The notes below the pieces were generated by a model. The model did no database searches, had not been told where the DNA came from, and saw nothing but the letters and a program-made list of their open reading frames with translations. A stretch of 64,000 nt of DNA, taken from NCBI GenBank assembly GCA_951406725.2, contig OX597838.1, positions 31,186,001 to 31,250,000 on the forward strand. Direction: 5' to 3'. Position numbers and translations under genes: made by a program. Shown here one piece after another: positions 39,397-41,151 of the stretch (within the stretch, counting starts at the first letter, position 1; the number at the start of each line of letters is the position of its first letter). Source of the DNA: Octopus vulgaris (Eukaryota).

Positions 39397-41151
39397 CGAG
39401 TTAGTTAGTTGGAGTTATTCTGGTGTGTTTGTTTCGAGTGCGTCATTGTGAGGAGGTTGTGAGTTCGAGTTCGTTGGAGGACGTGAAATAGTTTTTTTTT
39501 TGTTGAGATTCTTGAAAATGCAAGAGCAGACTTATGCGAGAGCAGCAGGCAGAGGCCTAGTTGCCAGTGAACTGGAAATGGAGGAAGTGGTGGTCGAACA
39601 GAAGACTTTACAAAAGTATTTCGACAGTTTGAAGAGGGAGGGTGACTGCGTGAGAGTCACACCGTCCGAGGAGGAAGAAAGCAACGCGGAGAAGCGTACG
39701 ATAACGTACAGGACATGGTGTGTGGAGTCGAAAAAAGTTGAAGTAGCAGAAATGGAAGAGGTAGAGAGGTGTCTGAAGGAAATTGAGGGTGAACCCACAT
39801 TTTTCAAAAGAGGAAGGAAATATGCCACGGTGGTGGTATATTTTAAAACAGAAAATGAAGCAAAAAAGAATGCAACAAGAATTTTGAAAACGGATAAGTG
39901 GACTTTACTACCAAGTTACTGCGGAAGGAGGGCAGTGAGGATGAGAATTAATAGAATTTCGCCCGAATTTAATATGGAGAGGTTGTTGGCGGCAGTGGTT
40001 TTCAACTGCAAGGATAGTGTGGAGGTGTTGAAAGTGGAGAAGTCAGCAGAGGTTAAGTGGTGGGGATATACGGTGCAGGTTCTGGCACACATAACCGTGC
40101 GAGACCTGTACAACATCCCGGAGGAGTTGGTCTACCCTGATGAGACACGGCTTAGAGTTGTGGTAGAGGGAAGACCCCCAATCTGCTATAATTGTAAATC
40201 GAGGGGCCACATGAAGGATGTGTGCCCGCGGGAAAAAACAAAAGCACCGGAGGCTGTAATAGAGGAGTGTAAAGATGCGTGTGTGGAGGAGGGAGAAGTG
40301 CAGGAGGAAGCGAAAGCAGAGGAGGCACGAATGGAGGAGCAGCTAAATGAGGATACGGGAGAAGAACGAGCAAGTGCAGAGGAGGAAAGAACAGAAGATA
40401 GGAAGAGAACAAGGGTGGAATCACCACCGAAAGTTCTAAAAAAGAAAAAAATCAAAAGCAAGATAACAGAAGAAAAAGAAGAGAGAACATGCAAAGAACA
40501 GGAAGTAAAAGAGAAGGCGAGAGAGCGGCCAAGGACAGAGTTTGAACAAGAATGGGAGACAAGAGTGAACGAGCAGTTGGAATCGTGTAAATATGGAAGA
40601 AGGCCTACAGGAAAAAACCTGAAAGTAGTTGTGATGTATATCAAGAATACAGAAGTGGAAAAGAGACTTGCAGGTAGGAAAGGGTTGATCAGGGTGAAGG
40701 TGAACCCAAAACTGTATGGTGACGATGTAAAAGGCGCAATTATAGAAAAAGAAACATACACAAAATTAAAAAAGATATTTAATGCTATTCATATAACGCA
40801 TTATGTACGGTATGACAATTTACCAAATGTAATAGACCAAATGGACCTATTAGAATATATGACGGACGAACGTCCAATATAAAAGAATTAGAATATATGT
40901 AAGGTTAAAAAGTAAAATTGTTAATTGTAAAATTGTAAAATGTAAAGTTGTATTTTGAACAGGAATATATGTAATTGTGAAATGTACAATTGTATTTTAA
41001 ACGGAACTGCGAGTTGGGGGTTCGTAAGCCGTTCCATCTCATTACATATAATTCATCTTTACTTCATATTTTTATTTTTACTTTATGTACCCCATGTCCC
41101 GTCTTGTAATGTCCCCCTCTTCGTGGCCCCTTTGTGGGTAATAAAGAAATA
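39397..41151 (+). mobile_element. Apparently full-length 1.75-kb ORF1-only non-LTR element (copy F)
   Basis: TSD ctgtgt at 39391-39396 and 41152-41157; 5'UTR, one ORF, then a 3'UTR ending ccctttgtgggtaataaagaaata; no ORF2. Confidence 0.85.
39500..40882 (+). CDS. Uninterrupted LINE ORF1-like (gag-like) protein with CX2CX4HX4C knuckle; first ATG at 39518
   Basis: 460-codon frame: TYA motif, RRM-like VVVYFKTE region, RVVVEGRPPICYNCKSRGHMKDVC, acidic region and basic PPKVLKKKK. Confidence 0.85.
   Translation: MLRFLKMQEQTYARAAGRGLVASELEMEEVVVEQKTLQKYFDSLKREGDCVRVTPSEEEESNAEKRTITYRTWCVESKKVEVAEMEEVERCLKEIEGEPTFFKRGRKYATVVVYFKTENEAKKNATRILKTDKWTLLPSYCGRRAVRMRINRISPEFNMERLLAAVVFNCKDSVEVLKVEKSAEVKWWGYTVQVLAHITVRDLYNIPEELVYPDETRLRVVVEGRPPICYNCKSRGHMKDVCPREKTKAPEAVIEECKDACVEEGEVQEEAKAEEARMEEQLNEDTGEERASAEEERTEDRKRTRVESPPKVLKKKKIKSKITEEKEERTCKEQEVKEKARERPRTEFEQEWETRVNEQLESCKYGRRPTGKNLKVVVMYIKNTEVEKRLAGRKGLIRVKVNPKLYGDDVKGAIIEKETYTKLKKIFNAIHITHYVRYDNLPNVIDQMDLLEYMTDERPI

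Follow-up and report, generated by a model that had tools for sequence, protein, structure and literature searches.

ORF1-only retroelement families in Octopus vulgaris and their probable dependence on intact L1/Tx1-type LINEs

Introduction

A 1755-bp non-LTR retroelement of Octopus vulgaris, here called F, carries an intact ORF1 and runs from it into a short 3'UTR and tail with no ORF2. It lies in a 64,000-nucleotide stretch of DNA (the window) together with three broken companions, C, D and E. Such an element is unable to reverse-transcribe its own RNA, which raises the question of how it has been copied and whether it belongs to a family or is the remnant of a longer LINE. The analysis reported here makes it very probable that all four elements represent long-lived ORF1-only families that arose from L1/Tx1-type LINEs, and that they are copied by the ORF2 proteins of intact LINEs through a tail consisting of a hairpin plus AATAAA.

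Four nested elements in the window

The features on which the argument rests are as follows.

39397..41151, plus strand: element F, full-length ORF1-only non-LTR retroelement, 1755 bp (target-site duplication (TSD), empty-site joint, full-length matches at other loci)
39391..39396, plus strand: left TSD of F, 6 bp, with its right copy at 41152-41157 (TSD and empty-site joint)
39397..39517, plus strand: 5'UTR of F, 121 nt (sequence)
39518..40882, plus strand: intact ORF1 of F, 454 aa (open reading frame; homologous to autonomous LINE ORF1, E about 1e-49)
39659..40177, plus strand: two predicted RRM/ferredoxin-like domains, aa 48-137 and 137-220 (AlphaFold model, Foldseek, VIA)
40184..40225, plus strand: CCHC zinc knuckle, aa 223-236 (Pfam zf-CCHC below the curated cut-off; invariant C/H columns)
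40538..40867, plus strand: C-terminal domain predicted to be folded, aa 341-450, which is conserved among F-lineage copies (model and alignment)
40883..41151, plus strand: 3'UTR of F (sequence comparison)
41126..41145, plus strand: 3' "G tail" of F, a GCCC/GGGT hairpin abutting AATAAA, common to autonomous LINEs and a SINE (tail comparisons)
39352..41515, plus strand: repeat that holds F and is split by it, with Helitron-like ends (TC...CTAG, flanked by A and T; sequence, empty-site joint)
38915..41812, plus strand: element E, 5'-truncated D-type ORF1-only element, 13-bp TSD, interrupted by the Helitron-like repeat that contains F
38732..41979, minus strand: SINE-like insert in D, 14-bp TSD, split by E (TSD, sequence)
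36536..42239, plus strand: element D, decayed full-length D-type ORF1-only element, 18-bp TSD, split by the SINE, E and other inserts
31440..34087, plus strand: element C, 5'-truncated D-type ORF1-only element, 18-bp TSD, interrupted by a Gypsy-like fragment and by a microsatellite

Four TSD-bounded elements do lie where the initial annotation placed them, with exact TSDs of 18 bp in C, 18 bp in D, 13 bp in E and 6 bp in F, and one tail aligns in all of them. The short TSD of F is supported by empty-site joints that connect 39390 to 41152, six letters being compatible with either side; they occur in contigs from runs X1, X3 and X16. Element F is also covered by contigs of three runs guessed to be RNA, although contigs of this kind cannot show transcription. 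A tblastn search with 20 intact ORF2s gave no match between window positions 29232 and 47285, so that the absence of ORF2 from the four elements is upheld. The insertions are nested: D holds the SINE, which holds E, which holds the Helitron-like repeat, which in turn holds F. We take the TC...CTAG ends of that repeat, set between A and T, to be Helitron hallmarks.

Several details of the earlier description needed revision. The F reading frame is indeed uninterrupted but has 454 codons from its ATG rather than 460 (476 from stop to stop). A direct passage from ORF1 into the 3'UTR and tail is seen in F; in C, D and E it appears only once inserts are set aside, because the elements are nested and C carries a Gypsy-like gag fragment (window 31845-33200; Retrotrans_gag E 2e-4, below the cut-off). 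C and E are 5'-truncated, and C, D and E are all broken. The ORF1s had been read as several diverged subfamilies and F is a separate lineage, but C, D and E all match a single D-type lineage (48-80% over pieces) and have a common 3'UTR block. The start CGA..TTAGT holds within the window but not as a family feature: in the same-tail relatives of F whose 5' end was compared, the C was present in 0/16 and T precedes GAGT, so CGA was rejected as a 5' signature. Elsewhere in the window are a decayed ORF1 and the start of an ORF2 from an autonomous-type relative (27383-29232) and the 3' end of another LINE-like ORF2 that has no Pfam match and is unrelated to the ORF1-only finding (35427-35800).

ORF1-only families across the genome

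A search of the 2.8-Gb genome with the F ORF1 gave at least 94 matches at 50-100% identity, obtained by scoring 93 of 33,904 candidates. From these a sample of 50 F-type loci was taken (the 30 best plus 20 chosen among the diverged; 46-100% identity). No same-strand ORF2 follows the F-type ORF1 in any of the 50; the ORF2 matches present at four loci lie upstream, on the opposite strand or in a neighboring element. The ORF is intact at 31/50 loci and the tail is present at 48/50. In the D-type lineage ORF2 is absent and the distance between ATG and tail is 1559-1567 nt at 30/30 loci. A third lineage, G-type, has the tail at 12/25 loci within the flank examined, and the ORF2 matches present at two loci both lie outside the unit. 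Relatives of E have the tail at 9/14 loci, with ORF2 matches at four loci, outside the unit or at its end, while relatives of the 3' end of C have a D-type ORF1 upstream in 5/14 cases and an ORF2 in 0/14. The recurrent unit thus comprises a 5'UTR, ORF1, a 3'UTR of 150-370 nt, the tail and a TSD, without ORF2. Unit length is uniform within families. At least three long-lived ORF1-only lineages are present in the genome, a count based on sampled loci and not on a full census.

The median dN/dS is 0.16 over aa 1-240 (NG86, 131 pairs among 20 intact copies, keeping pairs with dS 0.05-1.5; a rough measure on genomic copies), which indicates purifying selection on ORF1. Medians are 0.42 for the linker and 0.38 for the C-terminus, values above 1 occur for some close pairs in the middle and C-terminal regions, and dS reaches about 2. 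There are also young copies: some that differ by only 1-2 nt are found on different contigs (different chromosomes), and a 3'UTR motif of a young subfamily has 57 exact copies. In the ORF1 tree the F and G rows group together on their own branch and D joins the autonomous rows weakly. The unconstrained tree requires two changes in all 200 bootstrap trees, but the AU test does not reject one clade of all ORF1-only lineages (p 0.086), which may have had one origin or several. Overall, the picture of several old subfamilies under purifying selection and of L1/Tx1-type origin held in the genome-wide tests.

The ORF1 protein

In Pfam, the F ORF1 matches only zf-CCHC, at an E of 0.0017 that lies below the curated cut-off, and the C/H columns of the knuckle are invariant across 34 aligned sequences. 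An AlphaFold model built on this 34-sequence alignment (mean pLDDT 72.6) predicts two RRM-like folds at aa 48-137 and 137-220, the knuckle, a disordered charged linker at 241-336 and a folded C-terminal domain, in keeping with the RRM plus CCHC layout proposed for a structural check. Foldseek gave 19 matches at E ≤ 0.001, those listed being RRM proteins; the best VIA match is the La RRM with a middling score (Z 8.5, rmsd 3.1, 83 aligned), and look-alikes in the ESM Atlas include ZCCHC3-type RNA-binding domains (score 0.90). A word-indexed protein search found no homologue of F at E ≤ 0.001. A profile search gave 2445 matches, the best named ones being uncharacterized proteins of Octopus and Argonauta (six of the ten looked up had names).

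Autonomous LINEs and the 3' hairpin tail

The F ORF1 is about 35% identical over aa 6-243 to ORF1s that precede intact ORF2s (E down to 1e-49), and the maximum identity among the ORF1s of the 40 autonomous LINEs examined is 37%. Because 93 of the 33,904 candidates were scored and 40 autonomous elements examined, a closer ORF2-bearing relative could be unsampled. These candidate partners have an ORF1 with CCHC and an ORF2 with APE endonuclease, RT and zf-RVT domains (Pfam). The nearest solved structure to their ORF2 is human L1 ORF2 (E 4e-66 vs 4e-26 for R2; PDB). By these domains and that structure we assign them to the L1/Tx1 group.

The tail is common to the ORF1-only elements and to intact ORF2-bearing LINEs across the genome. 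Over their final 45-60 nt, F, E, D and C can be aligned to the 3' ends of intact LINEs at scores of 76, 84, 65 and 64 vs shuffled maxima of 36-38; for F the match is to the autonomous element L066, with 44/48 columns at the score of 76 (shuffled maximum 36). A hairpin of 3-6 bp adjoins AATAAA in 48 of 52 distinct tails vs 21.2 expected, related tails not being independent, and three unrelated stems are involved (GCCC/GGGT, GGGC/GCCY and GATT/AATC). Other LINEs are known to recognize their 3' ends stringently by means of a stem-loop (PMC3747384). The G tail has 24,230 exact genome matches, and the first 30 of them, on contig C1, all belong to a short SINE-like repeat that is non-coding and has neither ORF1 nor ORF2. 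The G tail therefore already serves another passenger, because this repeat carries it too. The repeat is about 230 bp long and very abundant (window 51750-52330; L248-L277), and three tandem tails stand 184 bp apart in the window; box-like motifs suggest that it derives from a tRNA.

Tail switch and hammerhead-side targets

Copies of F-type elements end in either the G tail or another, the H tail, the difference being confined to the last ~35 nt. In the ORF1 tree, which recombination between copies could distort, the G-tail rows form one clade (100/99) nested in the H-tail rows. The two groups also differ in target. A hammerhead-like core lies 21-40 nt past AATAAA in 20/23 non-tandem H copies and 0/13 G copies, against 22/3000 background windows; this count leaves aside 11 tandem copies and three loci without a tail within 700 nt, and the copies are related rather than independent. 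In a separate sample drawn by the H-tail pattern (30 of 90 matches) the core is present in 18/30 and an ORF2 precedes the tail in 0/30. Type I hammerheads are defined by stem I, a YYGAYGA core, stem II, GAAA, a short stem III and a UH cleavage site; a strict descriptor of this type is matched by 11/31 H copies and 0/18 G copies (background 10/2000). By the same descriptor, autonomous LINEs score 7/17 with ATCAT-type tails vs 0/14 with G tails. H and ATCAT tails are alike in geometry (stem, two bases, AATAAAGAT) and different in stem sequence. The exact H tail was seen on an autonomous LINE in 0/30 sampled from the 90 matches, and an H-tail partner is suggested by tail geometry and common target only. 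The G-tail subfamily, nested in the H-tail ones, thus appears to have swapped the last ~35 nt of its tail and to have stopped inserting beside hammerhead-like cores, a correlation at the level of sequence.

The targets are several divergent short repeats, with an inverted copy upstream at two loci and core variants CCGATGA and TTGATAA. Rfam gave no hammerhead at 14 loci, only low-complexity miRNA-type matches. Of the 38 ORFs flanking H-type sites, 34 were searched against Pfam and showed no Penelope domain, and one of eight target repeats matched one of 20 GIY-YIG loci, inverted and more than 1 kb away. The window itself contains, at 34200-34470, two inverted copies of a short repeat that is similar to the hammerhead-side target of L034 but lacks the core's 5' part. 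For F copies with the G tail, the insertion site is the 5' end of a D-type element, a different repeat or, in the case of F itself, a Helitron-like repeat. The ORF1s of L003 (H tail) and F (G tail) are 92% identical and their targets differ, and autonomous LINEs whose ORF1s are only 21-28% identical to F use the hammerhead-side site. Intact autonomous L1/Tx1-type LINEs were observed just 5' of hammerhead-like cores at L086-L088, L160, L163, L164, L170, L171 and L178, some of the hammerhead-side ones also in tandem at about 5.3 kb spacing. At L173 and L174, autonomous LINEs with a tail matching that of element C have (TC)n microsatellites after them, which might serve as the target.

Head-to-tail arrays

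Mixed trains of ORF1-only and autonomous elements occur at G000:C14:37734000-37755000, C4:70033000-70052000 and C4:93339000-93356000. Of three mapped arrays, one has a single F followed by eleven or so D units, another has five F, a D, a G and an autonomous LINE, and the last has D, F, D units, two G and an autonomous LINE. Two of the three abut ORF1 sequence of yet another LINE. Many D- and G-type loci also have an upstream flank in common, and its sequence looks like the ORF1 of a different LINE family. At the array junctions there are target-site-like duplications and A runs of variable length, and the simplest reading is that each new element inserted at the 5' end of the one before it. 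HeT-A of Drosophila forms head-to-tail arrays with its autonomous partners.

A-to-G edited copies

A comparison of 21 copies revealed two with A>G hypermutation of the sense strand. L018 (G000:C7:29254921-29259282) has 164 A>G of 171 differences to F and no G>A, and L028 (G000:C4:97906881-97911224) has 160 A>G of 194 differences. The changes lie almost wholly in the ORF, with few in the AT-rich 3'UTR. A 5' T (U) or A is favored (about 0.5) and a 5' G avoided (0.06). ADAR has this same neighbor preference, U or A being favored and G avoided, and octopuses are known for heavy RNA editing. The most likely source of these copies is edited RNA of the F family that was reverse-transcribed. Because two copies carry such ADAR-like hyper-editing, passage through an RNA intermediate is strongly indicated for the family.

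Proposed explanation and alternatives

On the proposed explanation, the ORF1-only unit encodes its own predicted RNA-binding protein, and purifying selection suggests that this protein is needed. ORF1 would act in cis, packaging its own RNA as an RNA chaperone, and the ORF2 of a partner LINE would be recruited in trans through the tail common to LINEs and the SINE. The partner's endonuclease, not ORF1, would set the target, as the correlation of tail and site suggests. H-tail subfamilies lie directly 5' of hammerhead-like cores, a site that some autonomous LINEs also use. The nested G-tail subfamily, with an ORF1 up to 92% identical, is found at the 5' ends of related elements or inside other repeats, and insertion of this kind would give rise to head-to-tail trains. 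A broader and tentative reading, to which we give rather less than an even chance, is that the 35-nt 3' hairpin is a swappable address label within a layered community of protein-coding LINE parasites. The ancestral F subfamilies would then copy the shape, not the sequence, of the tail of LINEs whose endonuclease finds hammerhead repeats of several divergent families, and one subfamily would have re-addressed itself with the tail of a very abundant SINE.

Two alternatives would deny the families a life of their own. Each copy might be a dead internal-deletion product of an autonomous LINE with ORF1 as a passenger, as the homology of both ORF1 and tail to LINEs of the same genome, in a sample of 40 autonomous elements, would allow. 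However, units are uniform in length within families, 31/50 F-type ORFs are intact, dN/dS is 0.16 at near-saturated dS, no autonomous ORF1 exceeds 37% and the F and G rows have their own branch; dead deletion products are largely refuted and we consider them extremely improbable. Little more probable, at a slim chance, is that the copies arose as processed pseudogenes from a small number of domesticated host ORF1 genes (ZCCHC3- or L1TD1-like), with selection serving the host, for example in restraining LINEs. In favor of this, the ORF is indeed under selection, annotations in other octopods include related proteins and the ESM Atlas offers ZCCHC3-type look-alikes (score 0.90), but the many nested subfamilies each had a recent burst of their own, tails are of LINE type, targets are subfamily-specific, tandem trains are mixed and no intron-bearing or single-copy parent was seen among the 50 loci.

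Other alternatives accept mobility and concern targeting or arrays. HeT-A Gag directs targeting at telomeres, and in the octopus ORF1 itself or chromatin clustering might direct the target, the tail change being incidental. Tail and ORF1 subfamily change together on one branch and so count as one event, G-tail F copies still favor a few repeats, and an exact-tail partner for H copies was not found (0/30 of 90 matches). Yet L003 and F differ in target at 92% ORF1 identity, and the hammerhead-side site is used by autonomous LINEs with ORF1s only 21-28% identical to F, so we regard this possibility as unlikely. Slightly less unlikely, and bearing on the arrays only, is that unequal crossing-over or assembly error rather than targeted insertion produced them, as near-identical units in some would suggest; against this, unrelated lineages (D, F, G and autonomous) are mixed on different contigs, two of the three arrays end in G and then an autonomous LINE, and both target-site-like duplications and A runs of variable length are found where units join. 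Later expansion of arrays by crossing-over may have occurred. The recruitment of LINE ORF2 by ORF1-only units through their tails is the reading we retain.

Novelty and significance

New relative to the initial annotation are the hairpin tail, the tail switch, hammerhead-side targeting, ordered arrays and edited copies. In the literature we found no description of these octopus families, of hammerhead-side targeting or of A-to-G hypermutated copies of such elements; Repbase, Dfam, Repbase Reports or supplements may already list the families. A term search of the octopus LINE paper (PMC9115989) gave no passage on Tx1 or non-autonomous elements. The work adds a diverse, old and recently active ORF1-only set from an L1/Tx1-type lineage in a mollusc, and its significance lies in transposon biology, not in a new host pathway. 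Natural variants make two questions testable: why ORF1 stays under selection in a non-autonomous element when same-tail SINEs do without it, and whether the choice of partner and target rests with the tail or with ORF1. Hammerhead-side targeting and A>G hyper-edited genomic copies are additional surprises for specialists. Should the address-label reading be true, these elements would be a natural experiment on template choice by LINE ORF2 in trans, would bear on the need of a passenger RNA for an ORF1 of its own and would be the first case of retroelements targeting ribozyme repeats.

Comparison with known systems

HAL1 is a non-autonomous derivative of the L1 group that encodes ORF1p only and arose several times (PMC5753468). 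The octopus elements had been described as a HAL1-like lineage, and as regards way of working this stands, both being ORF1-only, non-autonomous derivatives of an L1-group LINE. They are not HAL1, however: the ORF1 type differs, being RRM-RRM-CCHC as modeled, with zf-CCHC alone in Pfam, no Pfam match to the mammalian L1 ORF1 family and octopod named homologues. Also unlike HAL1, the 3' end is a specific hairpin tail and not only poly(A), insertion is site-specific with arrays, and the host is a mollusc.

HeT-A (Drosophila, Jockey clade) and Ag-Sponge (Anopheles, CR1 clade) are ORF1-present non-autonomous LINEs, and a passage of the same source lists ORF1-only LINEs from three clades of insects and mammals with no Tx1-type or mollusc case (PMC5786205). 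With a homologous ORF1, no ORF2, tail, TSDs and many copies, the octopus elements appear to belong to this ORF1-present class of HAL1, HeT-A and Ag-Sponge, the H-tail subfamilies matching a partner tail by geometry only. They resemble HeT-A and Ag-Sponge in being ORF1-present and non-autonomous, and HeT-A in forming arrays with autonomous LINEs, whereas their clade is different and their arrays are interstitial, within other repeats, not telomeric.

Tx1 of frogs targets another transposon. The Tx group is target-specific (PMC3747384), and the octopus partners are like Tx1-group LINEs in their APE, RT and zf-RVT ORF2 and CCHC ORF1. A hammerhead-containing repeat as target of a Tx1-type LINE was not found in print. 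Type I hammerheads are described in short repeats of a few hundred bases in mussel (PMC7229834; bioRxiv 10.64898/2026.07.22.740005). The octopus target, with a putative type I hammerhead layout in short repeats, resembles such non-LTR retrozymes and Penelope-like terminal repeats; unlike non-LTR retrozymes, its cores are variant (CCGATGA, TTGATAA) and have no Rfam match. The closest parallel for the tail is with stringent SINE/LINE pairs, in which a common 3' stem-loop recruits the partner's machinery (PMC3747384). Unlike the SINEs of those pairs, the octopus passenger encodes a protein under selection and appears to have exchanged its tail.
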